Assembly (NCBI RefSeq): GCF_964213995.1 | Contig: NC_135808.1 | Location: 24,614,001-24,678,000 of the forward strand | Reading direction: 5' to 3' | Origin: Mustelus asterias | Lineage: Eukaryota | Length of the DNA stretch: 64,000 bases | Shown: piece by piece, positions 1 through 64,000 of the stretch | Layout: every line of letters starts with the position of its first letter | Position numbering within the stretch: position 1 is the stretch's first letter | Notes under the pieces: generated by a model | Database searches by the model: none | What the model saw: the letters and a program-made list of their open reading frames with translations, nothing else | Told to the model about the DNA's origin: nothing | Made by a program: the position numbers and the translations under genes

Positions 1-164
1 GGATATTACAGGAGGTTGGGCACCGTGGAATATCAGAGGATGGAGAGAGCCTGGTGTATCCAAGAAACAATGCTTTTCACTGTGTACCAATACATGTGAC
101 AATAATAAATCACATCAAATATTACAGTAGGACTGGACCCAGTGCATCCTGGAAGTTTACTTCA

Positions 165-1470
165 GTCAGATTAAGATCAGTATTCAGAGAAATAATGGAA
201 TTCCTTCTATTGGAGACAATTCATGAAAATCTAGAATCAAATACTATAACAATGAATATTCAGCATGGATTTTGAAATGGAAAATCTTGTTTTACTCCAA
301 TTAGTGGATTTTTTGAGGATGTAACAAAGGGAATAGACAATGGTAATGTAATAGATATAATATCATATAATTTTTTTAATGTAATAGAAAAGGGGGTTCG
401 TGATGGACTGATTGACAAGGTGAAAGCATGTGGAGTTAGGGGATGAGTGACAGAATGGATCACTCACTGACTTTGGGACAGAAAGCAGAGAGTGTGAGTA
501 AAGGGTGTTTCAGAGTTACAGAAAGTGTTCCACAAGGATCAGTGCTGGGATCACCGCTGTTCACAAGTTACACTCCATAACTTGGATATTGGAATCAAAA
601 ATACCATTTCTTAATTTGCAGATAACATCAAATTGGGAGAATTATTTGATTTTGAGGAGAACTGGAATAAATTAATAGGACATGAATAAACTTGAACAAA
701 TAGTTGGTAAATAAAGTTCAGCACAGTTAAACGTGAGGTATTTTTCAGTTAACGATGAATAGGGAGGGTTGAGGAACAAAGGGATCTTGATGTACAAATA
801 CACCAATCAGTAAACATAGAGTTACAGGTTAGACAATAAACAAAATACAATCGAAAACCAGGTTTGATTTCTCGAGGAATAGAATTGTAAAGTAGTGATT
901 TTATTGCTAAACCTGTATCAAACCTTGGTTAGACCACATTTAAAGACCGTGTGCAGTTCCGGTCACCATTTCATAAAAAGGATATAGAGTCAGGGGAGAG
1001 AGTGTAGAGAAGATTTACAGAGATGATTCCAGAAATGAGTGGGTGGACATCTCAGGAAAGGATTGACCGGCTGGGTCTCTGCTCTCGGGAAAACAGAAGG
1101 CTGAGGGTTGACCGAATCGAGGATTTAAAATTAGGAAAGTTTTTTTTATAGGCCAGACACATCGAGAGTGTTCCTCTTGTGGGAAGAGCATATCCAGTGG
1201 CCATCAATACAAGAAACCCAATGGGGAATTCATGAGAAACCTCTTCACCCAAAGAGTGATGAGAATGTGGAGCTCGCTGCCACAGGGAGTGGCTGAACTG
1301 AACAGTATAGTTTAAGGGGAGGATAGACAAGCAAATGAGGGAAAGGGGAATAGAGTTAAAATGGTTGAATTAGATGAGGAATGATGGGAGAAGGCTCAAG
1401 TGGAACATAAATACCAGTATCAACTAGATGGGCCGGAAGGCCATTTTCTATGTTGTATATCCTGTGTTTC
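165..1470 (+). mobile_element. Old degraded CR1-type LINE fragment in intron 4 of gene A (paralogues ~17130-18430 and ~40980-41960)
   Basis: Remnant RT motifs (IQHGF, cacaaggatcagtgctggga, tttgcagataac) interrupted by many stops; boundaries approximate. Confidence 0.75.
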
Positions 1471-1757
1471 CTGATTCACTTTCACTCTGATTCTCTCTCA
1501 CATTTCTCTTTCTTTCACTCTGATTCACTCTTTCATTCTGTCTCTCTGATCTTTCTCTGTCTCTCATTCTCTCTCTTCCTCACTCTTAGTTGCTCATCCT
1601 CTCTCTCATTCTCTCCCACTCGCTCACATTCTATTTCTCTCTGAGTCTCACTGTTCCCTCTCCCTGATTCACTCAGTCTCTCACATTCTGTCTCTCTGAT
1701 TCTCACTTTTTTCTCTCCCTGACTCACTCAGTCTCTCTGATTCTCTCTCTCTAACAG

Positions 1758-2803
1758 AACCAAAGTCTCGCTCCCAGGTTGCTGTTACTGTCGGGATTGT
1801 GGTCGGGGTCCTCGTGCTCATCGCTCTCATCATTGTGGCTGTCGTCATCTACAACAAGAAAGGTAGGAATTGGAGGGAAAAGAGCGGTGGGTGAACTGTA
1901 GTGGATCCAGGCAGTCCGGGAGGCTGGAATTGATTCGTGCCATGACTAGCTTTTCGAATCATTTCATAACGATGGATGTCAGAGCCACCGGATGACAGCT
2001 CACTGGGGGCAGGGATTCTGGGAGAGTATTCCAGGGTGGCGGTGGCTCAGGCTGTGGGTCTCAGATTGGTGTGGGGGCGGGGATGGGGGGCTGGTGGTTG
2101 TACAGAGTGGGTGGAAGAGCTGCAGGTTTGGGATAGGGATGGTAAGGGGCTCATGATAAAGGATGAGTGTCTGAGAATTGTGGGAAGGGCCTCAAATTGG
2201 GTGAGGAGTTCAGGGTATCAGTGAGGGCTCAGCTAAGAGTGAGGGTCTAGGGACAGGACGGGAGTGATGGTCCAGGGTCAGGGTGGGAGTGAGGGTCTTG
2301 TGTCAGGATGGGAGTGAGGGTCTCTGGTTGTGGTGGGAGTGAGGGTTCAGAATTGTGTTGTTGGGGCTCAGTGCGAGTGAGAGTTCCAGCCTCTGTCTCT
2401 GATTTTCTCTCAGTCTCGTCACTCACTGAGCATTCCATGTTTTACAGGGAGAGGGAAGAGCAACTACAATCCTGCAAATAGTAAGCTGATCATCAAACAT
2501 TGTCCCTGTGCAACTGTGTACATCATTGTTCATTCTGTTTCAACGTTAGTTTGTGTGTGTGTGTGTGTGTGTGCGTGCATCGTGCGTTTCTGTGTGGGTG
2601 TGTGGGCTTCTGTGTGTCGCCGTTAGTATGGGTGTGTGAGAACCTCTTTCTCTGTGTCTCTCTGTCTCTCTCATTCTCTCTTTATCATATTCACAGTCTC
2701 TGCCTCTGTCTCTCTGATGTTGAACAATGTTTTAACACCTCTTCTTCCTTTAACAGCTTCTGATGATGGGGATTCCTCATCCAGATCCTCCACAAGTACC
2801 TGA
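1758..2803 (+). CDS. MHC class I heavy chain gene A, 3' part only: TM exon 1758-1862, cytoplasmic exons 2448-2480 and 2757-2803
   Basis: AG/GT-bounded phase-1 exons splice to EPKSRSQVAVTVGIVVGVLVLIALIIVAVVIYNKK-GRGKSNYNPAN-TSDDGDSSSRSSTST*, identical in protein to gene B exons 5-7. Upstream exons lie before position 1. Confidence 0.88.
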
Positions 2804-5137: not shown

Positions 5138-5229
5138 GGGTCTGATGGGTTTTGCTAGTGTTTGGGGTCTGCTGGGTTTAGCTGGTGTTTGGAGGTCTGA
5201 TGGGATTTGCTGGTGGTGTGTGGTTGGAA

Positions 5230-14520: not shown

Positions 14521-14583
14521 CAACCTGTTTGTGTCTATTCTGCCGGAGACTGATGACTCACTGAATCTCTTTATTCTGATTGG
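14521..14583 (+). promoter_or_regulatory. S-X1-X2-Y promoter module of gene B, plus an orphan Y box at 14489-14496
   Basis: CAACCTG (14521), GCCGGAGACTGATG-ACTCA (14542-14560), CTGATTGG (14576); 20-bp X1-to-Y spacing, as in MHC SXY modules. Confidence 0.8.
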
Positions 14584-14720
14584 TTTAAATCCTATTTTGT
14601 GTCCAATCAGATTGAGGCTCAGTGTAAACAGGGAAAGACAGAAGGAGTGAGTTGAGAAGATCACCTTTCTTTGAAAAAGAGTTTCCTCCAAATGTTTCCC
14701 CCAACATGAGGGAAGCAGCA

Positions 14721-17700
14721 ATGATTGGACTGATAGAGCTGGTCCTTCTGTGTGGAGAGGTGTCTGCAGGTGAGTGATGGGGTGTGAGAGGGGCAATGCC
14801 AGGCTGGGTAATGGGGCATTAACCCTGGGTCAGTGAGTGATGGGGTGTGAGAGAGGCAATGCCAGGCTGGGTGGAGGTCTTGCTCTCGGTTTGGAATCAG
14901 TGTTTGGGGTTCATGCCCTGATCTGTGTGTGTGTGTGTGTGTGTGTGTGAGGGTGTTGGTGTTTTTAGGGTGTCTATCCTGAATTCTCTCTCTCTCTATT
15001 TCAGGCTCTCACTCTCTCCGGTATTTCTTCACGGGAATGACTCCGATCCCGGGTTTCCCGGAGTTTGTGGTTGTCGGTTCTGTGGACGGTGTCCAGTTTG
15101 TTGTGTACGACAGCGATCGGAGGGAGCTGATCCCCCGGGAGCAGTGGATGGTGGAGAGCGAGGGTCGGGCAGCCTGGGAGCGGAAGAAGATCTTCGCACA
15201 GGAGCGGGCGATGCGTTTCAAACGTGCATTTCCACTGCTCATGTCCGACACCAACCAGACAGGAGGTGAGTGCTCACTCTCCCAGCACCCGGGGATCCAG
15301 GTGGGAATGAGGAGAAACCCAGAGTGGATCAGGAACCGAGAGCCAGAGGCTGATTGGCTGCGATTGGAGATGTGACAGGAAATGTGATTGGCTGTGAATG
15401 TGTGGAAGGATTGTTTCCAGGGAGGCTGCCTCTGATTGGCTGTGTGTGAGTGGAGGAGGTGGGGGGTGGGGGGGCGAGGGGCGGGAGCAGTTGACGGTGA
15501 TTGGCTGTTAGGATGAGATTGCCCAGTGAGACTGGTTCTGATTGGCTGTTTGTGTTTCTGATCCACAGGGATCCATGTCTGCCAGATAGTGACTGGCTGT
15601 GACCTGAGCGATGATGGGACCATGAGTGGATTCAGCCAGTACGGGTGGGATGGACATGATGTTCTCAGCTTCGACAAGGATCACATGGTGTGGGTGACCC
15701 CGGTCACATGGGGGAAGAGCATCAAAAACTGGTGCAACCGGCAGACTGGCAACATTCAGCAATGGAAACATTACCTGGAGGTGGAGTGTATCGAGTGGCT
15801 GAGAAAATACCTGGAGTATGGACAGAGAGAATTGAGAGTCTGTGAGTGAGGGGGGAGTGAGAGTCGGTGAGTGAGGGGGGAGTGAGAGTCGGTGAGTGAG
15901 GGGGGGAGTGAGAGTCGGTGAGTGAGGGGGGAGTGAGAGTCGGTGAGTGAGGGGGGAGTGAGTGAGAGGGGAGTGAGAGTCGGTGAGTGAGGGGGGAGTG
16001 AGAGTCGGTGAGTGAGGGGGGGAGCGAGTGTGGGGAGAGCGAGTGTGGGGGGGGTGAGTGTGAGCGAGGGTGGGGGGAGCGAGTGTGGGTGAGGGTGGGG
16101 GGAGCGAGTGTGGGCGAGTGTGGGGGGAGCGGGTGTGGGCGAGGGTGGCGGGCGGGTGTGGGCAAGGGTGGGGGGAGCGGGTGGGGGCGAGGGTGGGGGG
16201 GCGAGGGTGGGGGGAGCGAGAGTCGGTGAGTGAGGGGGGATTGAGAGTCGGTGAGTGAGGGGGGAGTGAGAGTCGGTGAGTGAGGGGGGAGTGAGAGTCG
16301 GTGAGTGAGGGGGGAGTGAGAGTTGGTGAAGGGGGTGATGCCGGGACTCTTATCTCGAGGTTCCTGTACTGACTCCTCTTTCTTTCTCTCTCAGTTGGCC
16401 CCGTCGTGTCCTTTACCCGTCTGGGTGATTCTAACCGGCTGTCCTGTGCCGTCATCGGGTTTTACCCTCAACCCATCGAGGTGAATCTGTGGAGAAACAG
16501 AGTGGTGATTGATGAGACTCTGTCCAGTGGGATCTTACCCAATCACGACAGCACCTACCAGATCCGGAAATGGGTAGAGTTTGATCCAGAGGACCAGGCC
16601 GAATATTCCTGTCGGGTGGAACACAGCGGGATGAAGGAGACACTGGTGGTGATTTACGGTAAGACTGTTTCTCACTGTTAGAGAGGACCCAGCCTCAGAC
16701 CAGGATCACAGGAGTGAGGGTCAGTGCTGAGCTGTCAACCCAGGATATCGAGAGAGGGAAATAAATATTATTCAATGCGTTATATATCATGGTTCCACAG
16801 TGCAACATGATACAGCGGATCATTGGATATTGGGATCGCACTGGGCCTGGTGTAACATTGGACACGAGTGTCGGTCTGGGCCTGGGGTATTCTGGGATAT
16901 TGCAGTATAGTGGGGCCCAGTGTATCCTGGGATATTGCAGCCTGTCAGGGCCTGGTGAATCCTGGGATATTACAGGAGGTTGGGCACCGTGGAATATCAG
17001 AGGATGGAGAGAGCCTGGTGTTTCCAAGAAACAATGCTTTTCACTGTGTCCCAATACATGTGACAATAATAAATCATATCAAATATTACAGTAGGACAGG
17101 ACCCAGTGCATCCTGGAAGTTTGCTTCAGTCAGATTAAGATCAGTATTCAGAGAAATAATGGAATTCCTTCTATTGGAGACAATTCATGAAAATCTAGAA
17201 TCAAATACTATAACAATGAATATTCAGCATGGATTTTGAAATGGAAAATCTTGTTTTACTCCACTTAGTGAATTTTTTGAGGATGTAACAGAGGGAATAG
17301 ACAATGGAAATGTAATAGATATAATATCATATAATTTTTTTAATGTAATAGAAAAGGGGGTTCGTGATGGACTGATTGACAAGGTGAAAGCATGTGGAGT
17401 TAGGGGATGAGTGACAGAATGGATCACTCACTGACTTTGGGAGAGAAAGCAGAGAGTGTGAGTAAAGGGTGTTTCAGAGTTACAGAAAGTGTTCCACAAG
17501 GATCAGTGCTGGGATCACCGCTGTTCACAACTTACACTCCATAACTTGGATATTGGAATCAAAAATACCATTTCTTAATTTGCAGATAACACCAAATTGG
17601 GGGAATTATTTGATATTGAGGAGAAGTGTATTAAATTAATAGGACATGAATAAACTTGAACAAATAGTTGGTGAATAAAGTTCAGCACAGATAAACGTGA

Positions 17701-19702
17701 AGTATTTTTCAGTTAATGATGAATAGGGAGGGTTGAGGAACAAAGGGATCTTGATGTACAAATACACCAATCAGTAAACATAGAGTTACAGGTTAGACAA
17801 TAAACAAAATACAATCGAAAACCAGGGTTGATTTCTCGAGGGATAGAATTGTAAAGTAGGGATTTTATTGCTAAACCTGCATCAAACCTTGGTTAGACCA
17901 CATTTAAAGACCGTGTGCAGTTCCGGTCACCATTTCATACAAAGGATATAGAGTCAGGGGAGAGAGTGTCGAGAAGATTTACAGAGATTATTCCAGAAAT
18001 GAGTGGGTGGACATCTCAGGAAAGGATTCACCGGCTGGGTCTCTGCTCTCGGGAAAACAGAAGGCTGAGGGTTGATTTAATCGAGGATTTAAAATTAGGG
18101 AAGTTTTTTTTATAGAGCGGACACATCGAGAGTGTTCCTCTTGTGGGAAGAGCATATCCAGTGGCCATCAATACAAGAAACCCAATGGGGAATTCATGAG
18201 AAACCTCTTCACCCAAAGAGTGATGAGAATGTGGAGCTCGCTGCTACAGGGAGTGGCTGAACTGAACAGTATAGTTTAAGGGGAGGATAGACAAGCAAAT
18301 GAGGGAGAGGGGAATAGAGTTAAAATGGTCGAATTAGATGAGGAATAATGGGAGGAGCCTCAGGTGGAACATTAACACCAGCATCAATAGATGGGCTGAA
18401 AGGCCATTTTCTATGTTGTATATCCTGTGTTTCCTGATTCACTCTCTCTCTGATTCACTCCCACATTTCTCTTTCTTTCTCTCTGATTCACTCTCTCATT
18501 CTGTCTCTCTGATCTTTCTCTGTCTCTCATTCTCTCTCTTCCTCACTCTTAGTTGCTCATCCTCTCTCTCATTCTCTCCCACTCGCTCACATTCTATTTC
18601 ACTCTGATTCTCACTTTTCCCTCTCCCTGATTCACTCAGTCTCTCTGATTCTCTCTCTCTAACAGAACCAAAGTCTCGCTCCCAGGTTGCTGTTACTGTC
18701 GGGATTGTGGTCGGGGTCCTCGTGCTCATCGCTCTCATCATTGTGGCTGTCGTCATCTACAACAAGAAAGGTAGGAATTGGAGGGAAAAGAGCGGTGGGT
18801 GAACTGTAGTGGATCCAGGCAGTCCGGGAGGCTGGAATTGATTCGTGCCATGACTAGCCTTTCGAATCATTTCATAATGATGGATGTCAGATCCACCGGA
18901 TGACAGCTCACTGGGGGCAGGGATTCTGGGAGAGTATTCCAGGGTGGCGGTGGCTCAGGCTGTGGGTCTCAGGTTGGTGTGGGGGTGGGGAGGGGGTGGG
19001 TGGGCGGGTGGAAGAGTTGCAGGGGTTGGGATAGGGACAGTAAGGGGCTCATGATAAAGGGGGAGTGTCTGAGAATTGTGGGAAGGGCCACAAATTGGAT
19101 GAGGACTTCAGCGTATCAGTGAGGGCTCGGGTAACAGTGAGGGTCTAGGGACAGGAACCGGAGTGTGGGTCCAGGGTCAGCGTGTGAGTGAGGGTCCAGG
19201 GTCAGGGTGGGAGTGAGGGTCTCTGGTTGTGGTGGGAGTGAGGGTTCAGAGTTGTGTTGTAGGGGCTCAGTGCGAGTGAGAGTTCCAGCCTCTGTCTCTG
19301 ATTTTCTCTCAGTCTCGTCTCTCACTGAGCATTCCATGTTTTACAGGGAGAGGGAAGAGCAACTACAATCCTGCAAATAGTAAGCTGATCATCAAACATT
19401 GTCCCTGTGCAACTGTGTACATGATTGTTCATTCTGTTTCAAATATAGTGTGTGCGTGTGCGTGTGCGTGCATCGTGCGTTTCTGTGTGGGTGTGTGGGC
19501 TTCTGTGTGTCGCCGTTAGTATGGGTGTGTGAGAACCTCTTTCTCTGTGTCTGTCTGTCTATGTCTCTCTCATTCTCTCATTATCATATCCACAGTCTCT
19601 GCCTCTGTCTCTCTGATGTTGAACAATGTTTTAACACCTCTTCTTCCTTTAACAGCTTCTGATGATGGGGATTCCTCATCCAGATCCTCCACAAGTACCT
19701 GA
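14721..19702 (+). CDS. MHC class I heavy chain gene B (nonclassical-type), complete, 343 aa: join(14721-14769,15005-15265,15569-15841,16395-16658,18666-18770,19347-19379,19656-19702); alternative in-frame ATG at 14706
   Basis: All introns GT-AG and phase 1; 1032 nt open. Leader [16 protein letters not shown], alpha1 GSHSLRYF...NQTG, alpha2 with C101/C164, C1-set alpha3 (GFYP, YSCRVEH), TM, Tyr-containing tail. Confidence 0.93.
15005..15265 (+). CDS. Gene B exon 2 (alpha1)
   Basis: [87 protein letters not shown]. Confidence 0.95.
15569..15841 (+). CDS. Gene B exon 3 (alpha2)
   Basis: GIHVCQIVTGCDLSDDG...[16 protein letters not shown]...KNWCNR...YLEVECIEWLRKYLEYGQRELRV. Confidence 0.95.
15842..16330 (+). 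repeat. 25-bp G-rich minisatellite (GTGAGTGAGGGGGGAGTGAGAGTCG)n in intron 3 of gene B
   Basis: Units start at 15842, 15867 and 15892; the middle of the array is degenerate. Confidence 0.95.
16395..16658 (+). CDS. Gene B exon 4 (alpha3, Ig C1-set)
   Basis: LSCAVIGFYPQPIEVNLWR...ILPNHDSTYQIRKW...YSCRVEHSG. Confidence 0.95.
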
Positions 19703-33673: not shown

Positions 33674-34410
33674 GTGAGTGAGGGCGGGAGTGAGAGTCGG
33701 TGAGTGAGGGGGGAGTGAGAGTCGGTGAGTGAGGGGGGAGTGAGAGTCGGTGAGTGAGAGTCGGTGAGTGAGGGGGAAGTGAGAGTGAGGGAGGAGTGAG
33801 AGCCAGTGAGTGAGGGGGGAGTGAGAGTCGGTGAGTGAGGGGGGAGTGAGAGTCGGTGAGTGAGGGGGGACTGAGAGTCGGTGAGTGAGGGGGCACTGAG
33901 AGTCGGTGAGTGAGGGGGGACTGAGAGTCGGTGAGTGAGGGGGGAGTGAGAGTCGGTGAGTGAGGGGGGAGTGAGAGTCGGTGAGTGAGGGGGGAGTGAG
34001 AGACGGTGAGTGAGGGGGGAGTGAGAGATGGTGAGTGAGGGGGGAGTGAGAGTCGGTGAGTGAGGAGGGGAGTGAGAGTCGGTGAGTGAGGGGGGGAGTG
34101 AGAGTCGGTGAGTGAGGGGAGTGAGAATCAGTGAGTGGTGGGGAGTGAGAGTCGGTGAGTGAGGGGGGAGTGAGAGTCGGTGAGTGAGGGGGGAGTGAGA
34201 GTCGGTGAGTGAGGAGGGAGTGAGAGTCGGTGAGTGAGGAGGGAGTGAGAGTCGGTGAGTAAGGGGGGAGTGAGAGTCGGTGAGTGAGGGGGGAGTGAGA
34301 GACGGTGAGTGAGGGGGGAGTGAGAGTCGGTGAGTGAGGGGGGAGTGAGAGTCGGTGAGTGAGGGGGGAGTGAGTGTCGGTGAGTGAGGGGGGAGTGAGA
34401 GTCGGTGAAG
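33674..34410 (+). repeat. 25-bp splice-donor minisatellite in intron 3 of gene C
   Basis: Regular tandem units filling almost all of the 801-bp intron. Confidence 0.95.
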
Positions 34411-37403: not shown

Positions 37404-37419
37404 TGTTAATGAATCTAAA

Positions 37420-42955: not shown

Positions 42956-43274
42956 NNNNNNNNNNNNNNNNNNNNNNNNNNNNNNNNNNNNNNNNNNNNN
43001 NNNNNNNNNNNNNNNNNNNNNNNNNNNNNNNNNNNNNNNNNNNNNNNNNNNNNNNNNNNNNNNNNNNNNNNNNNNNNNNNNNNNNNNNNNNNNNNNNNNN
43101 NNNNNNNNNNNNNNNNNNNNNNNNNNNNNNNNNNNNNNNNNNNNNNNNNNNNNNNNNNNNNNNNNNNNNNNNNNNNNNNNNNNNNNNNNNNNNNNNNNNN
43201 NNNNNNNNNNNNNNNNNNNNNNNNNNNNNNNNNNNNNNNNNNNNNNNNNNNNNNNNNNNNNNNNNNNNNNNNNN
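42956..43274. other. Assembly gap (319 N) in intron 6 of gene C
   Basis: Run of N flanked by TG/CT microsatellite sequence. Confidence 1.
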
Positions 43275-44049
43275 CCTCTCGGCCTCTCTCTCTCGCTCTC
43301 AGTCTGTCTGTCTGTATGACTCTTTCTCTGTATCTACCCGAACAGGCAGCTCGGGGATTTTCACAGTAATTTAATTGCAATGTTAATGTAAGCCTACTTG
43401 TGACACCAATAAATTAACTTATAATTATAAATTGCTTTCTCTTTCTCTCTTTTTCTCTCTCACTCTTTCTCTCACTCTCCTTTCTCTCACTCTCTCTCTC
43501 CATCTTTATCTCTCCATATCTCATGCACTGATTTTGTCTGATGACAAACAGTATTTTTAATGCCTCTCCTTCCTTTGACAGCTTCTGATAAAGGGGATTC
43601 CACAACCAGCTCCTCCACAGGTTCCTGAGATATGAATTCTGTTGATAAATATTGGGAGCTGATCCTTCTACCTGGGATATTCCCGCTGGATTTAGCTGTA
43701 CAATCTGGTGGGTGGGCTGTGAGCTCAGTGTCTGTCTCTCGCTGTATCGTCACTAAAGAGCAGCTCATCCAATCCAACACTGAGCTTTGAGACTGGCCTT
43801 CTGGAGACGGCTGCTCCTGTACAGTCTGAGGGTGGAGACATTGTGGGTGTTGAGGTGTCGAGACACCCGGAAACATCTCACCCTGGACAGCCTCCGCTAA
43901 GCTGCTCAATTTCCTTAGGAAGTCGGAATTCCCAAGAGTTTTCCCTGAAGTTGGTCACTGAGCTGTGTCACTCCCACAGGATTTAACATTTAACGTTTTG
44001 TGATGGGTTTGATCGTTTTCTGGATGTTTGGGAAGCGGAGTGAATCTTA

Positions 44050-51130: not shown

Positions 51131-51322
51131 CATAATATAACCAGTTGTATTTACCTGATTGGAGAATTCTGAATATTGAGGAAGTTTGCCAACCTGTTTT
51201 GTGTCTAATCAGATTGCGGCTTCGTGTGAACAGAAAAAGACAGAAGGAACAAGTTGAGAAGATCCCCTTTCTTTGGAAAAGAGTTTCCTCCAAAGGTTTC
51301 TCCCAACATGAGGGAAGCAGCA

Positions 51323-54300
51323 ATGATTGGACTGATAGAGCTGGTCCTTCTGTGTGGAGAGGTGTCTGCAGGTGAGTGATGGGGTGTGAGAGGGGCAATG
51401 CCAGGCTGGGTACTGGGGCATTAACCCTGGGTCAGTGAGTGATGGGGTGCGAGAGGGGCAATGTCAAGCTCGGTGGAGCTCTTGCTCTCAGTTTAGAATT
51501 CACATTTTGGGATTCATAGCCTGGTGTTTCACTATGTGTGACAGTGGGTGTTTTGGGGTTCATGGCTTGATGTCTCTCTCTGTGGTGTTGATATTTTGGG
51601 TTTGTACCTCAATTTCTGTGTGTGTGTGTGTGTATGTATGTTTTGGTGTTTGGGGGTTCACACCCTGATGTCTCTCTCTCTGGGTGTTGGTGTTTTGGGG
51701 TTCACACCCTGATGTCTCTCTCTCTCTGGGTGTTGGTGTTTTGGGGTTCACACCCTGATGTTTCTCTCTCTCTCTGGGTGTTGGTGTTTTGTGTTTCTTA
51801 CCCTGAGGTCTCTCTCTCTCTGGGTGTCGGTAGGGTTCATACCCTGATGTATCTCTCTCTGTGGGTTGACGTGCCTTCAAGGAAGGTTTTTATATCATGT
51901 TTCTTGTGAAGGGAATGTTTTAAACTCAGCACTGAGCACCGTGCTGATTTGTTTGCAACCTGCAGTCTACCTGATGAGAACGCAGTAGCATAATTAATCC
52001 TAGATAATGGGTTGTTTTGTTTATCGTCTGGGTTGTCCCCTGGGGTTTCAGAGTCGGGTTTGATTCGATTGATTTACAAGAGGAAGTCATCTGCTAATGG
52101 AAGAAGCTATTCTTACAGAGAAACAAAGCAGGCAGTTATCTGCTTCGGTCTGTCATCAGCAAGAAGTGTTATTCTCTCTCACTCTCTCTCTTTTAGGATT
52201 ATAGTTTGGGACCTGTTTGAAAATAGGTCTCTCTCCATATTTGTTCTGGGGCTTAAGGACTAGCAGTCGCTGACCAGCACATAAGCCTGTTGTTTGCTAA
52301 CTGATGTTAAAGATGAGTTTACGTCTCTGAGGAATATTGCTTAAATTGGGACTAATACAGATAGACAAGCAGCAAAGAATTTGATCTTGTCTTGTTTCAG
52401 TATTTAAGTTGGTAAGATATACATCAATTCTTTTTGTTCTTGTTTAAACTGTTTTGTTCATTTTTTTAAAGCTTCCCATTGGGTCAATAGAATCACAGCT
52501 GGAGTGATTCACTTCATCCTCACACTCATGCCAAAATAAAAATAAAAATGTGGGTCTAGTCTAACTTCATAATATAACTTGGAGTTTGAGGTCTGGTCCC
52601 TAAAAAAATTTAGGGAGTGACCGAGATCAGAGTTGAGAATTCCTTGTTCAGCTTAGGATTACTGAACTCAAAGTCAGTGAGTGTTGAGTTTTTGTGTGTT
52701 CTCTTGAGGTGAATGCCGTATGGAATAAATGGTTCTTTTACTGGCTGAGGTTTTCCTGGGTGTGGAAGAAGTGACTCAGGATGGTTTACAAAAAGTGGAT
52801 AAAGCAAAACTTCTGGCATTGCCAAACAAGTTGCAGCTTTCAGTGATAGCTCGGCACTTAAAATTGCCAGAAACATTGGAATTGGCTTGAATTCAACTCC
52901 AAATCTCACAGCTTGAATTAGAGGCAAAGGAAAGAAAACACAATTGAAACTGTTGAAATTGCAATTAAAAGCAAATGAAAAAGAGTTGAGATAGTTTGAA
53001 TTGTAATTTAAGGAAAAAGAAAGCGAGAGAGAATAGCCCTGGCAGAGCAAAACAAAGGGAAAAAGAATTAGAACTTCAGGAAGTGAAAAGGCAATTTGAA
53101 CTTGAAATGTCTGAAAGGCAAATGTGTAAAACTGCGCGTGTATCAGGAAAAGGACAGATGATTTTGAATCAGTTTGTGAATCATATGTTGGCTTTCAACA
53201 TCAGTTTCAGCCTGTGAGAGACAGAGAAATCCTCAGGTGGTAAAGGAGATGCCATTGGAGATCGTAAAGATAGTTTCCCTCAGGTAAATTCTTTCCACTA
53301 ACTGAACTTCAACTTCTTTATCTTTACTTTGTGATTTCCCCTCCTGGCCAACCTGTGGCTTTGTAAACTTGTTATCCCGCAGTCAGGAAAAAAACCCCAG
53401 GATATGCTTCCTGCATCACCTCAGCTGTCTGATTTTCCACTGGCTTTTCAACCACAGTAACCATCACTCCCACCTGTGATCCAGCTTTATCATTACCCAG
53501 GATAAACTGTATTCCTGGAAAAGATCATTTCCCTATCACTCCAACCCCCACCACCACTTTCGCCAGAATCTCCAACCTTACACTTTATAATGGAACACTA
53601 CTCTTTTCACAAGTAATTTCACTTATTTCCACATTTTTCCGGCAATACTCCTTCCAAACTACATATCTCCTCATCTTTCACCATCAAAGATTGACTTGAT
53701 CCTGTACCTTTTAAAATCTGAGCTTCTTTACCTCCTCCTCCTGGTACACATAAGTAAACCTTACCCACATAAGTAAATTATTTAAAACGACTAAGCACTT
53801 GCTTATCAACCAATCCCTGACCAGGCTGGACACTTTTTCACCTGTTCAGCTTCAACTATGGTTTCCTTTATCAGTTAACAGACCCCAGATGGTTGAGCAA
53901 GAACATAAACTGTTGGAGGATGGAGGTCACTATTTTTAGTTCAGAAAGTTGTCAGAATTACAGCAGAAGGATATAGAAATAAAGCAATTGTATCAGAAAG
54001 CATATACAGAAGAAGAATCTGAGTGTATACCAGAGTGATACTACATTACAAATGATGAATTGATGAGATGCTGGAGATCATTACATATTCAGGCAGATGC
54101 ATCAAAGTTATTCCGGGAAGTTGTGGATAGCTTAGGAGTAAAGCAATTTAAATCAACTCTGTACCATCCAGAATCGCAGGGAATATTGAAACGCGAGCGT
54201 CAAATTTTAAAGGCCATGTTGAGGACCTCCAGGCAAGATTATCCAGAGGATTAGGATAAAGGATGCACCAAATGAATGAACTAAATTCAGTCTATTTGAA

Positions 54301-57300
54301 TTAAGTTTTGTCATGAGATAAGTGGACCACTTAAATTCATCAAGGAAAAGTTGGTGAGTCAGCATTCTGGGACTATGTTGGACTATGTGTCAAACTTTAT
54401 GGAGAGATTAACTAGGGGTGGGAAGTTCATGAGACTGCAATTAAAGGTGGCACAGCATGTGAAGAAAAAAAGTGGACAAGAAAAGTTCCTCGTTTTGCTC
54501 GCAGGGATAAGGTGTTAGCATTATTAGCAGTGCTAGGTGAACATTTAACAGCTAGGTTTAGTGGGCCTTATCAAATAGGGTGGCATGGTGGCACAGTCGT
54601 TAGCACTGCTGCCTCACAATGTCAGGAACCGGAGTTCAATTCCAGCCTCAGGTGACTGTCTGAATGGAGTTTGCACTTTTTCCCGTGTCTGCGTGAGTTT
54701 CCTCTGGGTGCTCCGGTTTCCTCCCACAGTCCAAAGGTGTACAAGAGAGGTTGATTGTCCATAATAGCTTGTCCCCTTCGTGTCAGGGGGATTAGTGGGG
54801 TCGATGCAATGATGAGGTCGAGGTGGGATTGTTGTTGGTGCAGGCTCGATGGGCCAAGTGGCCTCCTTCTGCACTATAGGGCTTCAATGAAATTGAAAGA
54901 AAATTGAATAAGATGATTTTTAAAAATTCATTCATAGGACATGGGCATGGCTGCTGGCCAGCATTTATTGCCCATACCTAGTTGCCCTTGAGAAGGTGAT
55001 AGTGAGCTGCCTTCTTGAATCGCTGCAGTCTATGTGCTGTAGGTTGACCCACACTGCCATTAGAGAGGCAATTCCAGGATTTTGACACAGCGACTGTGAA
55101 GGAATGGCGATACATTTCCAAGTCACCATGGTGAGTAGCTTGGAGGGGAACTTGCAGGTGGTGGTGTTCCCATGTAACTGCTGCCCTTGTCCTTCGAGAT
55201 GGATGTGGTTGTGGGTTTGGAAGGTGCTGTCAAGGATATTTGGTGAATTGTTGCAGTGCATCTTGTAGATAGTACACACTATTGCTATTGAGCGTCAGTG
55301 GTGGAGAGAGTGGATGTTTGTGGATATGGTACCAATCAAGTGGGCTGCTCTGTCCAGGATGGTGTCAAGCTTCTTGAGTGTTGCTGGACCTCATCCCATC
55401 CAGGCAAGTGGGGAGTATTCCATCATACTCCTGATTTCTGCCTTGTAGATGGTGGGCAGACTTTGGGGAATCAAGAGGTGAGTTACTCGTCACAGTATTC
55501 CCAGCCTCTCACCGGCTCTTGTGTTTATGTGGCGAGTCCAGTTGAGTTTCTAGTCAATAGTAATGCCAAGGATGTTGACAGTGGGGGATTCAGTAATGGT
55601 AACACCATTGAATGTCAAGGGGTGGTTGTTAGAGTGTCTCTTATTCATGATGATAATTGCCTGACATTTGTGTTGCTCGAATGTTACTTGCCACTTGTCA
55701 GCCGAAGCTTGGACATTGTCCAGATCTTGTTGCATTTGAACATGGACTGCTTCAGTATATGTGGAGTCATGAGTGGTACTGAAAATTGTGCAATCGTCAG
55801 CAAACATCCCCACTTCTGACCTGATGATGGGGGGAAGATCATTGATGAAGGAGTTGAAGATGGTTGGGCTGACGACACTACCCCAAGGGATTCATAAGAA
55901 CATAAGAACCAGGAGCAGGAGTAGGCATCTGGCCACTCGAGCCTGCTCTGCCATTCAATAAGATCATGGGTGATCTTCTCGTAGACTCAGCTCCACTTAG
56001 CCGCCAGCTCACCATAACCCTTAATTCCTTTACTGTTCAAAAATGTATCTATCCTTGCCTTAAAAACATTCAATGAGGTAGCCTCAACTGCTTCACTGAG
56101 CAGGGAATTCCACAGATTCAAACTCATTGTGTGAAGAAGTTCCTCCTCAATTCAGTCCGAAATCTGCTTCCCCTTATTTTGAGGCTATGCCCCCTCATTC
56201 TTGTTTCACCCGCCAGTGGAAAAAACTTCCCTGCTTCTATCTTATCTATTCCCTTCATAATCTTATATGTTTCCTTCAGATCTCCCCTCATTCTTCTGAA
56301 TTCCAATGAGTATAGCCCCAGTCTACTCAGTCTCTCCTCAAAAGCCAACCCTCTCAACTCTGCAATCAACCCTAGTGAATCTCCTCTGCAACCCCTCCAG
56401 TGCCAATATATCCTTTCTCAAGTCAGGAGACCAAAACTGTACACAGTACTCCAGGTGTGGCCTCACCAGCACCTTATACAGCTGCAACATCACCTCGCTG
56501 TTTTTCAACTCCAATAAAGGACAACATTCCATTTGCCTTATTAATTACCTGCTCCACCTACAAACCAACTCCTTGAAATTCTGCACAAGGACACCCAGGT
56601 CCCTCTGCACAGCAGCATGCTACAATTTTTTACCATTTAAATAATAGTCCATTTTGCTGTTATTCCTACCAAAATGGATGACTTCCCATTTACCAACACT
56701 ATACTCCATCTGCCAAACCCTCGCCCACTCACTTAGCCTATCTATATCCCTTTGCAGACTTTCAGCGTCCTCTGCACACTTTGCTCTGCCACTCATCTTA
56801 GTGTCATCTGTGAATTTTGACACACTACACTTAGTCCCCAACTCCAAATCATCTCTGTAAATTGTAAACAATTGCGGTCCCAACACTGAACCATGAGGCA
56901 CACCACTAGTCACTGATCGCCAACCAGAAAAACACCAATTTACCCTCACTCTTTGCTTTCTGTTAGTTAACCAATCCTCTATCCATGCTAGTACATTACC
57001 CGTAATACCGTGCACCTTTATCTTGTGTAGCAGTCTTTGGTGGGTCACCTTGTCAAATGCCTTCTGGAAATCCAGATACACCACGTCCACAGGTTCCCCA
57101 TTGTTCATTCCTGCACAGATGTCCTGGAGCTGAGATGACTGACCCTCCACAATCACATTCCTATGTGCCAGGTATGACTCCAACCAGCGGAGAGTTTGCC
57201 ACCTGATACCCATTGATTTCAGTTTCGCTAGAGTTCCTTGATGCCACACTTGGCCGAATGTGGCCTTGATATCAAGGGCTGTCACTTTCACCTCACCTCT

Positions 57301-59112
57301 GGAATTCAGCTATTTTGTCCATGTTTGAACCAAGGCTGTAATGAGGTCAGGAGCTGAGTGACCCTGGTGAAACCCAAACTGGGCGTCACTGAGCAGGTTA
57401 TCATTAAGCAGGTGCTGCTTGATAGTACCCGTGGAGAATTATATGACAAGAACGTTGGATCGAAGGAAATCTCACAGAGTGTTTCCTGAGAATATACTCA
57501 AGCAATATTTTGATCGGGAAGGAAAGCAGAAGGGGGATGCATTAGTTATGACAATGCAGAGTGAAGAAATAAGTCCAGATGATTCTGCATTTGACATTCT
57601 TCAAATTAGATTGGATAATGTGGAAGTAATCGGAAATTGAAATAAACGATTGAGTTACCTTCTGGAGGAAAATCAAAATGGCCTGAAAGAGTTACTACAA
57701 CCACATGGAGAGATATGTGGGAATAAACTGGGAAGGACTAAAATAATTATGCACAACGTAGATGTAAGAAATGCTGTTCCAATTAAGCAATATCTGTACA
57801 AGCTTAACCCTCCAAAGTTGGCATAGGTTCAAAAGGAGATTGAAAGCATATTTAAAAATTACATAATTGAAGTGAGTTGGAGCGAGTGCAGCTCACCCGT
57901 AGTGAGGGTTCCAAAATGAGATGACACCCAACAATTCTGTGTGGACTATAGGAAAGTTAATGCAGTTACAAAATAAGATTCATATCCCATTCCTTTCTTG
58001 GGAGACTGCATTCAGAAGGTGGGACAAGTGACTTTTATTTCCAAACTTGACTTACTAAAAGGATACTGGCGGGTACCTTTATCCGAAAGGGCAAAGGAGA
58101 TTTTGGCTTTCATGACAAAAAATGGTCAGTACCAGTTTAAAATCATGCCATTTGAAATGAAAAATGCACGAGCCACATTTCAAACATTAACTAATAAGGT
58201 CATTTCTGGACTACCTAATTGTGCTGTGTACATAAACAAACTGGTGGTTTTCAGACAGATGTGGAAGGAACATTTGGAGCACCGAGCGGAATTGTTCAAT
58301 TGGCTTCAGGATGCAGGCTTGGTGGTAAACTTGGCTAAGAACGAGTTTACAAAAACCAAAGTCACATTCATAGTCCATACAATTAGACATGGATGGAAGG
58401 CCCTACGGTCGGTGAAAACAAAGGTTATTGGGGAGTGCCCAATACTGCCGGTGAAAAGTGAAGTACTGCATTCTTGGACCTGGATGGTTTTTATAGGAAT
58501 TTTGTGCCAAACATTTGCATTATGGTTGCTGCACTGACTGACTTGCTGAAAAAACATGCAAAATTTCAGTGGACGGTGAATGTCAGAGGGCATTTGGCAG
58601 CCTGAATAATGTGTTAACCACTGCACCTGTGTTGGCAAGAACAAATTATGCAAAACCATTCAAGATGGCCATTGATGCGAGTGATGTGGCTGTTCTATTA
58701 CAAGAAGATGACAAAAGGATATAAAGACCAATTGGGTACGTTTTCTGGAAAACTAAATAACCATCAAAAGAGATTCAACCATTGAGAAAAGAAACATTGA
58801 GTTTGGTGTTGGCATTGCAACATTTTAACGTTTATGTTGTCAGCAATTCATCTGAGACAGTTATTTACACTGATCATAATCTATTGACGTCTCTGGAGAA
58901 ATTTAGAGATCAAAGTGAAAGGCTCTTTAGATGGAGTTTATTATTACAGCCATTTTATATGAGAATTACAATGTGGCAGAAAGTGAGAATGTGATTGCTG
59001 ATGCTTCATCAACAATTTCATGAAAGAGGAAGGAATATTCAATGTCGGAAGAGAATGACTGTACTGGACAATAGAACTATTATACTTGCATGCATTGATT
59101 TACTAGAATGTG

Positions 59113-59151
<39 letters not shown>

Positions 59152-60931
59152 ACTAATAGTGTGAAACTTGAAGTTATGAAAAATGAAGCCATTTTTTATT
59201 GCTGTTTTTTTTAAGGGGGAGGTGTGAGGATACTGTGCCTTTAAGAAATGTATCTATATCATGTTTCTTGTGAAGGGATTGTTTTCAACTTCAGCTCTGA
59301 TTACAGTGCCGATTTGCCCACAAACAGCAGCCCACATGCTGAGAGTGCAGAAGCATAATTTATCCCAGATAATGTTTCTTTTTGCTTTTATCTGAGCTGT
59401 TTTGTTTATTTTTTTGGGTTGTCCCTGGGGTTTCAGAGTAAGGTTTAATTCGGTTGATTGACAAGAGGAAGTCATATGCTGATGGGAAGAGCTAAGCTTA
59501 CAGGAAGACAAGCAGACAGTTGTCTGCCTGGACCTGCCAGAAGCATTATTCTCTCTCTCTTTCTCTAAAGACTGTAGTTTGGGACCTGCTCGAAAATAGG
59601 TCTCTCTCCAGAGGTGTTTTGGAGGCTGGAGATACCCAGCTCAGATACCCACATGTAAGGCTGTTTGCTGACTGATTTTCAGGAGGTGTTTATGTCTATG
59701 AGGAATATTGCTTAAATTGGAACAATTAGAAATAATCCAGCAGTTAAGAGTTGTATCTTGTCACATGTAAGAATTTCAGTTGGTAAAAGTTGAGGCTATT
59801 TCTTTTTGTTATAGTTAAACTGTACTGTTAAATAAAGTTTGTTTTGACAAAAGCTTCCTAGTGGGTCATTGGAATGACACCTCGAGTGAAACACTTTATC
59901 CTCACACGAATGTCAAAGTCAAAAAAGAGAGTTGGGGTCTGGTCTAAATTCATAACATGGAGTTTCTAATCTGGTGCCCAACGGTGGATGCTGGTGTTTT
60001 GTGTTCATACCTTGATCTCTCTCTGTTTTTCAGGTTCTCACTCTCTCCGGATTTCCGTCACGGGAATGACTCCGATCCCGGGTTTCCCGGAGTTTGTGCT
60101 TGTCGGTTATGTGGATGATCTCCGGGTTGTTGTGTACGACAGCGATCGGAAGGAGCTGATCCCCCAGGAGCAGAGGATGGTGGAGATCGACGGACATGAG
60201 GCTTGGGAACAGAAGAAGATTCTCGCACAAGAGCTGGGGATGATTGTCAAATTGTCTTTTCCGGTCTTCATTTCTCTGTCCCAGCAGACAGGAAGTGAGT
60301 CCTCACTTTCCCACCACTCGGGGGTGCAGGTGGGAAGAAACCAAGAATGGATCAGGAACTGGGAGCCAGAGGCTGATTGGCTACGATTGGATATGTGACA
60401 GCAAATTTGATTGGCGATCAATGAGTGGAGGGAATGTATCCAAGAGAGACTGGCTCGGATTGGCTGTGTGTGGAGGACATGAGATCCACTTAGTGTAACT
60501 GCCGCTGATTGGCTTTCTATGTGGTGGGAGGTGCCTCGCTTGATTTGATTGGCTCTTGATAGAATGGGTCTGGCTTCTGAGTGGAACTAGCTTGGATTGG
60601 CTGTGGGGGTGGGATCTCACATTGGGACTGACTCTAATTGGCTGTTTGTGATCCACAGGAATCCATGTTTTACAGATGATGACTGGCTGCAATCTGAGGG
60701 ATGATGGGACCACGAGTGCATTCAACCGGATTGGGTGGAATGGACAGGATGTGCTCAGCTTCGACAAGGATCACATGGTGTGGGTGACCCCAGTGACCTG
60801 GGGAGAGATCATCAAAAACAATCTTGACAGGGATACTGCCCAGAATGAGCGATTCAAACAATTACTGGAGGTGGACTGTATTGAGTGGCTGAGGAAATCC
60901 CTCGAGTTCGGACAGAGTGAACTGACAGCTG
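51323..60931 (+). CDS. MHC class I gene D (highly divergent nonclassical-type), 5' part: exons 51323-51371, 60034-60294, 60659-60931; alpha3 onward not in the window
   Basis: Leader identical to B and C; alpha1 261 nt and alpha2 273 nt, open, GT-AG, with C101/C164 retained. Intactness of the rest is unknown. Confidence 0.85.
51640..51860. repeat. ~44-bp tandem repeat (TCTCTCTGGGTGTTGGTGTTTTGGGGTTCACACCCTGATG) in intron 1 of gene D
   Basis: About 5 visible copies; the unit resumes after the LTR element at ~59985. Confidence 0.85.
51860..59983 (+). mobile_element. Decayed full-length Gypsy LTR retrotransposon (Gmr1-like INT-before-RT order) in intron 1 of gene D; LTRs ~51860-52605 and 59223-59983
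   Basis: Two diverged ~750-bp direct repeats, PPT AAGGGGGAGG at 59213-59222, integrase (YHPESQG, ~54160) upstream of RT (LDLLKGYW, ~58050) and RNase H ([13 protein letters not shown]). Confidence 0.88.
54927..57425 (-). mobile_element. LINE (L2/CR1-group) 54927-55890 plus 57105-57425, interrupted by a CR1 at 55893-57104, all nested in the Gypsy element
   Basis: [15 protein letters not shown] and MFADDCTIF in the outer element; DFQKAFDKV and FTDDTK in the inner one. Confidence 0.85.
60034..60294 (+). CDS. Gene D exon 2 (alpha1)
   Basis: [87 protein letters not shown]. Confidence 0.93.
60659..60931 (+). CDS. Gene D exon 3 (alpha2)
   Basis: [17 protein letters not shown]...[16 protein letters not shown]...IKNNLDR...[26 protein letters not shown]. 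Confidence 0.93.
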
Positions 60932-61809
60932 GTGAGTGAGGGGGGAGCGAGAATTGGTGAGTGATGGGGGGAGCGAGAGTCGGTGAGTGAGGGGGGGAGT
61001 GAGAGTCGGTGAGTGAGGGGGGGAGTGAGAGTCGGTGAGTGAGGGGGGAGCGAGAGTCGGTGAGTGAGGGGGGGAGCGAGAGTCGGTGAGTGAGGGGGGG
61101 AGCGAGAGCCGGTGAGTGAGGGGGAGCGAGAGTCGGTGAGTGAGGGGGGAGCGAGAGTTGGTGAGTGAGGGGGGAGCGAGAGTCGGTGAGTGAGGGGGGA
61201 GCGAGGGTCGGTGAGTGAGGGGAGAGCAAGGGTCGGTGAGTGAGGAGGGTTTGGGAATCAGTGGGTGAGGTAGGAGTGAGTGGGAATCGGTGAGTGAGGG
61301 AGGGAGTGAGAGTCGGTGAGTGAGAGGGGGGAGCGAGAGTCGGTGAGTGAGGGGGGAGGGAGAGTCGGTGAGTGAGGGGGGGAGCGAGAGTCGGTGAGTG
61401 AGGGGGGGAGCGAGAGTCGGTGAGTGAGGCGGGAGTGAGAGTTGGTGAGTGAGGGGGGGAGCGAGTGTCGGTGAGTGAGGGGGGAGCGAGGGTCGGTGAG
61501 TGAGGGAGGAGCGAGGGTCGGTGAGTGAGGAGGGTTTGGGAATCAGTGGGTGAGGTAGCAGTGAGTGGGAATCGGTGAGTGAGGGAGGGAGGGAGACTCG
61601 GTGAGTGAGGGGGGAACTGAGAGTCGGTGAGTGAAATGTGAGTGAGAGTCGGGGAGGGGGTGGGAATCAGTGGGTGAGGGGGTGTGGGAATCAGTGGGTG
61701 AGGGGGGAGTGAGTGGGAATCAGTGGGTGAGGTGGGAGTGAGTGGGAATCAGTGGGTGAGGGGGGAGTGAGTGGGAATCGGTGAGTGAGGGAGACTGAGT
61801 CATTGAGTG

Positions 61810-62572
61810 ACTCGGGACAGATAGAGAGAAAGGTAGAAAACACCTCCTGCATTTTGCAGAAAGCTGGAGGGAGATACTTATTTTCTATCAGCTCCCAGAC
61901 TGCAATTTCCAGACAGAGAAAGGGAGAGAGAAAGAGCTGCTCCTTCGTTTTTCAAATTGAAACAGCAACTGCCTGCCTGTCCCTCTGTAACCCAAACTGC
62001 TCCCATTGACATGATTTCATTCTTGCCAATCAACCTAATTACACCCGACTCTGAAACACCAGGAGAAAACCACAACATTTCACAAAACTGCATTAGCTCA
62101 GATTAAAACAAACACCCCAATACTTAGGACCAATTACTCTTCTGCATTATGTTGTGAAGTTTATGTTTTTAAAATGATAACACAATTGTAACAATTGGAG
62201 TTTTCTAAACAGCATTCCATTGGAATCGTGCTTTATTCGGTTTGTTAATTGTTTTGTTAACCTGATTGCTGTTAGTTAGATAAATAAAGTGTTACTTGTT
62301 GCTTTACAGAGGGAATCTCAGGTAGTTATTTTGATTTGACCACTAAAAGTTGCTGAAGAGCAGATATTAACCCTTCTCACACACACTTTAACAGATTATG
62401 AAGGGACGTAATGCTCTTTCAGTGGCTGAGTATCAGTTCTCAGAGAGGAAATCAACTTCCACTTCGTAACAATTATCAGCATGTGGGCTGCTGCAGTAAT
62501 CAGAGTTGACACATAAAACAGTCCCTTTAGAAGAAATGCAAATACATTCCTTAAAAGCACAGTTCTGACACA
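61810..62572 (-). mobile_element. LTR fragment related to the intron-1 Gypsy LTR, itself interrupted by another LTR-like piece (~62150-62471)
   Basis: Reverse complement resembles 59223-59600; the inner piece resembles 39480-39686. Confidence 0.6.
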
Positions 62573-63104
62573 GGGGACTTAGAGTGAGTGAGGGAGGGAG
62601 GGAGTGAGATTCGGTGAGTGAAGGAGGTGAGAGAGCCGGTGAGTGAGGGGGGGGAGTGAGAGTTGGTGAGAGAGGGGGGAGCGAGAGTCGGTGAGTGAGG
62701 GGGGAGTGAGAGTCGGTGAGTGTGCGGGAGTGAGAGTCGGTGAGTGAGGGGGGAGTGAGAGTCGGTGAGTGAGGGGGGAGTGAGAGTCGGTGAGTGGGGA
62801 GGGGAGTGGGACTCTCACTCCCGCTCACTCACCGACACTCACTCCTCCCTAACTCACCCACTCTCACTCCCCCCTCACTCAACGACTCTCACTCCCCCCT
62901 CACTCACCGACTCTCACTCCCCCCTCTCTCACCGACTCTCACTCCCCCCCCTCACTCACCGGCTCTCTCACCTCCTTCACTCACTGAATCTCACTTCCTC
63001 CCTCCCTCACTCACTCTAAGTCCCCTGTGTCAGAACTGTGCTTTTAAGCAATGTATTTGCATTTCTTCTAAAGGGACTGTTTTATGTGTCAACTCTGATT
63101 ACTG
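62494..63104. repeat. ~610-bp fold-back inverted duplication, centre near 62810
   Basis: CAGTAATCAGAGTTGACACATAAAACAG... is mirrored by ...CTGTTTTATGTGTCAACTCTGATTACTG; minisatellite polarity flips at 62811. Confidence 0.92.
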
Positions 63105-64000
63105 AGGGGAGGAGTGAGCATCGGTGAGTGAGGGGGGAGTGAGAGTCGGTGAGCGAGGGGGGAGTGAGAGTCGGTGAGCGAGGGGGGAGTGAGAGTCGGT
63201 GAGTGAGGGGGGAGTGAGAGTCGGTGAGTGAGGGGGGGAGTGAGAGTCGGTGAGAGAGGGTGGAGTGAGCATCGGTGAGTGAGGGGGGAGTGAGAGTCGG
63301 TGAGTGAGGGTGGAGTGAGAGTCGGTGAGCGAGGGGAGAGTGAGAGTCGGTGAGTGAGGGGGGAGTGAGAGTCGGTGAGTGAGGGGGGAGTGAGAGTCGG
63401 TGAGTGAGGGGGGGAGTAAGAGTCAGTGAGTGAGGGGGGTAGTGAGAGTCGGTGAGAGAGGGTGGAGTGAGAGTCGGTGAGTGAGGGGGGAGTGAGAGTC
63501 GGTGAGTGAGGGGGGGAGTGAGAGTCGGTGAGAGAGGGTGGAGTGAGAGTCGGTGAGTGAGGGGGAATGAGAGTCGGTGAGTGAGGGGGGAGTGGGTGTC
63601 GGAGGGTGAGGGGGGAGTGAGAGTCGGTGAGTGAGGGGGGAGCGAGAGTCGGTGAGTGAGCGGGGAGTGAGAGTCGGTGAGTGAAGGGGGAGGGAGGGTC
63701 GGTGAGTGAGGGGGGAGTGAGAGTTGGTGAGTGAGGGGTGGAGTGAGAGTTGGTGATTGAGGGGGGAGTGAGAGTCGGTGAGTGAGGGGGAACTGAGTCG
63801 TTGTGCGAATGTGAGTGAGGGGGGAGTGGGAGTCGGTGAGTGAGGGGGAACTGAGTCGTTGTGCGAATGTGAGTGAGGGGGGAGTGAGAGTCGGTTAGTG
63901 AGGGGGGAGTAGGAATCAGTGGGTGAGGGAGGAGTGAGTGGGAATCGGTGAGTGAGGGGGGAGTGAGAGTCGGTGAGTGAGGAGGGAGTGAGAGTCGGTG

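Follow-up and report, generated by a model that had tools for sequence, protein, structure and literature searches.

A 64,000-nucleotide (nt) stretch of the genome of the smooth-hound Mustelus asterias (NC_135808.1; positions 1 to 64000 of the stretch, here called the window) is very probably a slice of a multicopy cluster of UBA genes, a class Ib family of the shark major histocompatibility complex (MHC), whose units have been duplicated in tandem and diversified in their grooves, with some of them dying. The window holds four class I units, A to D, all on the + strand, as a preliminary description of this DNA had proposed. Unit A is present as its transmembrane (TM) and tail exons only, D runs on from alpha3 beyond position 64000, and B is the one gene lying whole within the window. 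Exon models were built with canonical splice sites, and residue numbers were anchored on the alignment of shark UAA (6LUP) and on published alignments of HLA-A2, UAA, and UBA.

1758..2803, +: gene A, 3' end only; TM 1758-1862, tail exons 2448-2480 and 2757-2803, all identical to their B counterparts
14706..19702, +: gene B, intact UBA class Ib gene, 348 amino acids (aa), 3/8 anchors, extra C95 and C147; leader 14706-14769, alpha1 15005-15265, alpha2 15569-15841, alpha3 16395-16658, TM 18666-18770, tail exons 19347-19379 and 19656-19702
32456..43628, +: gene C, UBA pseudogene or truncated gene, seven exons, 6/8 anchors; leader 32456-32519, alpha1 32819-33079, alpha2 33401-33673, alpha3 34475-34737 (broken), TM 42116-42220, tail exons 42833-42865 and 43582-43628
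51308..60931, +: gene D, 5' part, 0/8 anchors, Q86 (no glycan site), hydrophobic groove; leader 51308-51371, alpha1 60034-60294, alpha2 60659-60931

Between the units the window contains only retroelement fragments or open reading frames and simple repeats, the makeup of a cluster of multicopy UBA genes alone. No TAP or PSMB8/9 gene lies inside the 64 kb, and the array is tandem and multicopy; UAA, by the account in part of PMC10751288, is a single gene beside TAP and PSMB. The protein encoded by B is an exact match to a RefSeq M. asterias record (XP_078073677.1, our P0125) and carries Pfam MHC_I and C1-set matches. The product of C is RefSeq P0022, and D alpha1-alpha2 is identical to P0025, P0139, and P0140. 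The leaders of B, C, and D, described earlier as identical, are so at 64/64 nt. The similarity noted among the 3' ends of A, B, and C is equally close: A and B share TM (105/105) and tail exons (33/33 and 47/47) completely, and C matches them at 103/105, 31/33, and 40/47 (TM and tail 85-98%). The 3' halves of A and B together with the intergenic DNA downstream (1-9097 and 16965-27882) are 93-94% identical, so that A and B are a recent duplication; the flanks of C are 80-87% alike.

The units belong to the UBA lineage

Phylogenetic evidence places the array within UBA. In the larger alpha1-alpha2 tree, built from 96 rows after removal of 17 near-duplicates or fragments and, earlier, of seven odd models and all proteins of >420 aa, B, C, and D fell in a 49-row clade with nurse shark P0015 and horn shark P0016 at a support of 100/98, and the same UBA grouping was found in a 46-row tree (97/93). 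Joining B, C, and D to UAA was rejected by the approximately unbiased (AU) test (p-AU 5e-5), which sets them outside the UAA clade. The alpha3 tree contains a shark UBA clade of 46 rows at 94/92, just below the star threshold. The 14 rows from Mustelus group there in a single shallow clade (96/89), whose alpha1-alpha2 counterpart is a deep and weakly supported clade (73/77).

The closest named cDNA-type records are AAC60347 from nurse shark (P0015) and AAC60348 from horn shark; a search among representatives clustered at 50% identity added no names. An initial identification of the genes as UEA was dropped once AAC60347 was found labeled Gcirratum_UBA in the supplement of PMC10751288. Section 9 of the same paper describes UBA as an MHC-linked cluster of multicopy UBA genes only, and PMC12562908 as an expanded family derived from UAA. 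A UBA cluster is expected on the MHC chromosome with c4 and rxrb as its flanks; that UBA and UAA models come from contigs of one length (140,552,254) is a mere hint of such a location. The nurse shark and horn shark records share both clades with the present genes, are 64-72% identical to B, and have in common with them a residue other than Y59, K63, I143, and a multicopy cluster. They differ in that nurse shark UBA has 4/8 anchors, against 0-7/8 in the Mustelus array, and in that Mustelus has both a C95/C147 subgroup and a glycan-less, hydrophobic D type that nothing in other species matches closely. Classical UAA (nurse shark 6LUP, Triakis UAA, and Mustelus P0054) resembles the units in fold, short alpha3, and a similar tail, at ~50-54% identity, but has 8/8 anchors and E, Q, or N at position 63 and forms a separate clade.

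The other nonclassical shark class I genes (UEA, UCA, UDA, UFA, and UGA), of which UEA is multicopy too, are far more diverged from B, C, and D in published alignments, as judged by eye only, and UEA, UDA, and UFA are located in the other class Ib cluster. UEA was reportedly described by Almeida in 2021 as having a hydrophobic groove, which would resemble the D type.

Terminal anchors vary around a conserved K63 and W167

The anchor residues had been read correctly in the preliminary description. At positions 7/59/84/143/146/147/159/171, C has Y,S,R,I,K,W,Y,Y (6/8), B has Y,A,D,I,W,C,Y,Y (3/8), and D has I,A,L,I,N,L,L,S (0/8); all three carry K63 and I143 and lack Y59. None, therefore, has the full set of eight that marks classical class Ia, and incomplete sets are what UBA genes have. 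The spread is normal for UBA: 25 distinct Mustelus units have anywhere between 0 and 7 anchors, and outside Mustelus, where 29 of 34 UBA rows allowed scoring, the counts lie between 0 and 6. (The 25 units are RefSeq models, isoforms and fused models included, and not a count of loci; three lack position 7.) Nor is there a positional gradient, since the order along the chromosome is 3/8 (B), 6/8 (C), and 0/8 (D).

Underneath this variation lies a nearly constant set of residues. Among the 49 UBA rows, Y59 is found in none (2 gaps), K63 in 45, I143 in 41, and W167 in all 49, and K63 is paired with E163 or D163 in 44. Of 34 elasmobranch UAA-like rows picked from the tree, six odd rows and the bony vertebrates being set aside, 32 have Y59, none has K63, and 33 have T143. 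Both K63 and W167 are invariant in the Mustelus units (25/25); T143 takes the place of I143 in six, so I143 is not universal in the array. Published nurse shark UBA has F59, K63, and I143, and the substitutions that had been taken to mark an unnamed group are thus traits of UBA at large. Our literature search found no text on UBA groove residues, although Bartl 1997, Almeida 2020, and Almeida 2021 may well discuss K63 and I143.

Two sets of rows within UBA stand apart. A carpet-shark pair, P0042 (Stegostoma) and P0044 (Hemiscyllium), has S63 and T143. At the base of the clade, P0060 of the sevengill Heptranchias combines K63 with Y59 and has 7/8 anchors; it is possibly an intermediate between UAA and UBA.

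Gene B and a putative ligand role

Gene B has no framework changes (0/39), and its structure model (predicted local distance difference test [pLDDT] score, 82.5) matched 6LUP best, followed by MR1 and by bird and fish class I. Since a fold search follows sequence likeness, these matches say nothing about the ligand; no UBA structure appeared in searches of the PDB. Intact copies such as B would be surface glycoproteins associated with beta2-microglobulin that do without the classical two-end peptide clamp. They would retain some of the A pocket (Y7, Y159, W167, and Y171), with the lineage-fixed K63 facing E163, whereas the F pocket would be freely remodeled (D84, I143, W146, and C147 in B). 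Because the A pocket is partly kept and the C-terminal clamp lost, such copies most likely bind noncanonical peptides or ligands resembling peptides. By analogy with Xenopus XNC, the array may offer a diversified set of ligands to innate-like T-cell or natural killer (NK)-type receptors.

The K63-E/D163 pair could form a bridge at the A/B end in the manner of R62-E163 in H-2Dd, under which, as described in a passage of PMC1174912, peptides still pass. A free amino terminus would be disfavored, because a lysine replaces an acidic residue. A lysine at this end of the groove brings to mind MR1, whose Schiff-base lysine is K43. K43 aligns to L45 of B, C, and D, and not to K63, and an MR1-type Schiff-base site in these genes was ruled out.

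Cysteines 95 and 147 (alpha2 of B, 15580-15740) co-occur in 6 of the 25 Mustelus units and never occur singly there. The units bearing them appear to form one subgroup, three having been placed in a tree group at 94/98, and C147 is present without C95 in two other species. The two residues, which presumably sit on opposite sides of the F pocket, possibly form an extra disulfide or remain free thiols, as in HLA-G.

Taken further, UBA would be more than a degenerate UAA: its A pocket would have been remade, with Y59 gone and the fixed K63 bridged to E/D163 beneath W167, into one that selects ligands with blocked or anionic heads (N-formyl, N-acyl, or phosphate) and has been kept across sharks and rays; peptide-type grooves would have turned into glycan-less, lipid-type ones more than once, D being one case, and the F pocket would be closed by a C95-C147 disulfide in the B subgroup. 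We consider this extended proposal rather doubtful.

The nearest working analogues are Xenopus XNC (mhc1-uba) and mouse H2-M10, in which class Ib genes likewise stand in tandem, include pseudogenes, and have lost terminal anchors to varying degrees. The shark UBA cluster differs from them in being MHC linked, and the likeness is offered as one of analogy only. Section 7 of PMC12562908 reports that XNC10 and XNC4 restrict innate-like T cells.

Gene D and the hydrophobic subgroup

Gene D differs from B upstream of the leader and within intron 1.

14551..14583, +: promoter block of B, also in C and absent from D, with a TGATGACTCA motif and a CTGATTGG box
~51196 (14535-14601 of B): D promoter deletion of 67 bp between short direct repeats
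51871..59981, +: decayed insertion in D intron 1 resembling a long terminal repeat (LTR) retrotransposon, with an LTR-like pair at 51871-52603 and 59235-59981
57977-58534 and 58761-58991, +: reverse transcriptase (RT) and RNase H of this element; 56623-57309, -: nested RT

The deletion removes the TGATGACTCA and CTGATTGG motifs, which we take to be X2-like and Y-box-like, respectively, and the next CCAAT is also altered. Between the true leader (51308-51371) and the alpha1 exon are 8.7 kb. In the RefSeq D models (P0025, P0139, and P0140) the first exon comes from inside the intronic retroelement (58684), and the true leader is missed. Five of 39 framework positions are changed in D, including W51R. 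In favor of function are open frames, a non-groove dN/dS (ratio of nonsynonymous to synonymous divergence) of <0.5, several near-identical copies, and a good structure model. Gene D itself may, on its sequence features, be a weakly expressed or decaying copy. The 15 listed runs matching D alpha1-alpha2 include no RNA run, which has no bearing on expression.

Could the D type instead consist of functional presenters of lipids or hydrophobic metabolites, CD1-like or YF1-like in function, derived from UBA perhaps on several occasions within elasmobranchs? At the sequence level D-type units combine a hydrophobic groove with the loss of terminal anchors, as CD1 does: mean hydropathy at 29 groove sites is 1.6-2.1 in the four D-type units and -0.6 to 0.7 in the other 21, and the N86 glycan site is gone (Q86). 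The residues I7 (where present), L84, Q86, L95, and L159 are common to the D type, the diverged P0037, and P0002 unit 2, and D is modeled as a complete class I fold (pLDDT 88). A single clade of all eight low-anchor UBA rows was rejected (p-AU 0.013), in keeping with repeated origins. However, pairing D singly with its zebra shark, horn shark, or ray look-alike was not rejected (p-AU 0.14, 0.36, and 0.15), and the AU tests for that reason do not fix the number of D-type origins. The D type is a 100/100 clade with no non-Mustelus match of >62% identity among 49; no ancient orthologue was found among these matches, and the AU tests leave one possible. Hydrophobic grooves also bind hydrophobic peptides, as noted for Qa-2 and HLA-E in part of PMC1174912. 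The promoter deletion and framework changes point to decay, and the evidence on the groove of D concerns its residues and not its shape. We regard presentation of lipids or hydrophobic metabolites by the D type as a tentative possibility.

Diversified grooves between near-identical flanks

Comparison of B with C at the DNA level gave identities of 100% in the leader, 97% and 86% in the first and second halves of alpha1, 80% in intron 2, 80% in alpha2, 93% in alpha3, and 98% in TM. Synonymous divergence (dS) was 0 in the leader, 0.07 in alpha3, 0.18-0.25 in alpha1, and 0.42-0.71 in alpha2. The units keep a near-identical leader, alpha1 floor strands, alpha3, and TM around a diverged block made of the alpha1 helix, intron 2, and alpha2; between B, C-type, and D-type paralogues alpha1-alpha2 is 57-70% identical, and the rest is nearly the same. 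Because divergence is low in the flanks and high in this block, we infer that old, diverged groove cassettes sit on flanks homogenized by conversion or unequal crossing-over.

Nonsynonymous divergence (dN) at groove codons (36 sites) was 0.39, 0.61, and 0.70 for B-C, B-D, and C-D, respectively, compared with 0.14, 0.14, and 0.20 at non-groove codons, a 3- to 4-fold excess; non-groove dN/dS was 0.32-0.45 in the same pairs. Groove dN exceeded groove dS in 67%, 95%, and 99.8% of bootstraps, which suggests positive selection on the groove in pairs with D and demonstrates none for B-C. Across the 25 Mustelus units, entropy was 1.35 at groove sites and 0.58 at other sites. The contrast between groove and non-groove codons had been put forward as a check on the preliminary description, and it came out, with the trees and the identity profile, in support of a nonclassical family derived from UAA-type genes that evolves by birth and death with groove diversification.

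Several points weigh against this account of a homogenized, groove-selected UBA array. Homogenization and recent exon shuffling cannot be distinguished here, and the DNA-level comparison covers three genes only (B, C, and D). Groove dN clearly exceeds dS only in pairs containing D (B-C, 0.39 versus 0.33), to which relaxed constraint could contribute. The rows behind the residue and entropy counts are related to one another and include RefSeq isoforms and fused models, and the trees were built without UEA, UDA, UCA, UFA, and UGA sequences, for which a short-motif screen had given unverified matches only.

A less favorable view is that the variety of grooves is mostly neutral decay of redundant copies, the anchors having been lost because the copies are idle. 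Gene C is broken, and other C-type RefSeq models look lesioned; D has its promoter deletion and intron-1 retroelement, the most framework changes in the array, and RefSeq models that begin inside the retroelement and not at the true leader. Idle copies would not be expected, however, to concentrate their changes on groove codons or to hold non-groove dN/dS at 0.32-0.45, D pairs included. The LTR-like pair of D is down to identities of 72-82%, yet its alpha1 and alpha2 frames are still open, and K63 and W167 have not varied in any of the 25 Mustelus units. Neutral decay as the main cause is therefore unlikely, and we retain diversification of UBA grooves with loss of some copies.

Gene C is broken

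34636..34713, +: alpha3 lesions of gene C; 1-nt deletion behind 34636, in-register TGA at 34644-34646, frameshift stop at 34711-34713

The shifted frame of C yields a 278-aa product without the second alpha3 Cys and without a TM segment, in which the Pfam C1-set match covers just positions 11-45 of 86. The alpha3, TM, and tail of a functional class I molecule are hence not intact and in frame. A stop codon far 5' of the last exon junction leads, as a rule, to nonsense-mediated decay; because the C stop lies well upstream of that junction, its transcript is predicted to be degraded in this way.

The preliminary description had gone further and suggested that these genes are possibly an unnamed class Ib sublineage forming a functional graded series, from a peptide binder (C) to a nonpeptide binder (D). 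Its anchor counts of 6/8, 3/8, and 0/8 are correct, and the D type is distinct enough (100/100; at best 62% non-Mustelus identity among 49 matches) that this subgroup alone could merit its own name. The alpha1-alpha2 trees, however, nest B, C, and D inside the already described UBA and apart from UAA, which refutes a new lineage; the shared residues are lineage-wide, and counts of 0-6 are also seen among the 29 scored non-Mustelus rows. A functional series is not supported, because its 6/8 member is broken and its 0/8 member shows signs of decay. We consider that reading very improbable.

Four public runs (X1, X3, X4, and X13), whose contigs show presence only, were compared with the C alpha3 exon. 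A 130-nt contig of X4 equals 34554-34683 with 0 differences and spans both lesions, and X3 had no coverage at the site. Contigs of X1 and X13 have the extra base, yet because they differ at 9 and 14 further sites they represent paralogues and not C. That the lesions are assembly errors and C actually an intact 6/8 gene is barely credible: the extra base in X1 and X13 would speak for it, though it comes from paralogues, and against it stand two separate lesions 8 nt apart, their joint presence in the X4 contig (X4, from the same study as the best-matching runs, may be the assembly animal), and the truncated product in RefSeq. Other individuals possibly carry an intact C allele.

C-type grooves are the most classical-like in the array, and every copy seen (P0280, P0097, P0286, and P0001) looks damaged, each differently. 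As read from the models, P0097 and P0286 have an alpha1 frameshift, P0280 has an aberrant tail and 7/8 anchors with T143, and lone alpha2 segments head fused C-type models.

Minisatellites and retroelements

15833..16329, +: 25-nt G-rich minisatellite, start of B intron 3
33665..34408, +: 25-nt minisatellite, C intron 3
60931..64000, +: 25-nt minisatellite, expanded and interrupted, D intron 3
11367-12149, 20874-22091, 36199-37209, and 38592-38987: retroelement fragments between or inside genes; Pfam confirms an RT of the long interspersed nuclear element (LINE) type in two

The minisatellite is an amplified exon 3/intron 3 junction in which the splice-donor context is repeated 10 (B), 23 (C), and 42 (D) times, and it lies where the diverged groove block meets the homogenized alpha3. 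Given this position and the repeated donor context, it may promote exchange or supply cryptic donors. By eye and with no Pfam match, the frame at 11367-12149 looks like a Penelope-type endonuclease and that at 38592-38987 like Gypsy pol.

Implications for UBA

The residues had been read correctly and the lineage is a known one, so that the earlier observation is partly confirmed and its interpretation partly supported. In the first instance, these results annotate a known lineage in one more shark, with two corrections: C is broken, and the true leader of D lies 8.7 kb 5' of alpha1. Section 9 of PMC10751288 describes the function of UBA as unknown. The fixed K63/E163/W167 set, together with close B, C-type, and D-type paralogues, provides constructs for studying how a class I groove switches from peptide to nonpeptide ligands, and sharks and rays, the oldest group with an MHC, are a setting for that question. 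The odds are modest that a ligand class not yet described lies behind the fixed K63 pocket and the D-type grooves. If the A pocket has indeed been rebuilt and lipid-type conversions have occurred, the array would be a natural series leading from a peptide presenter to a CD1-like or MR1-like presenter.

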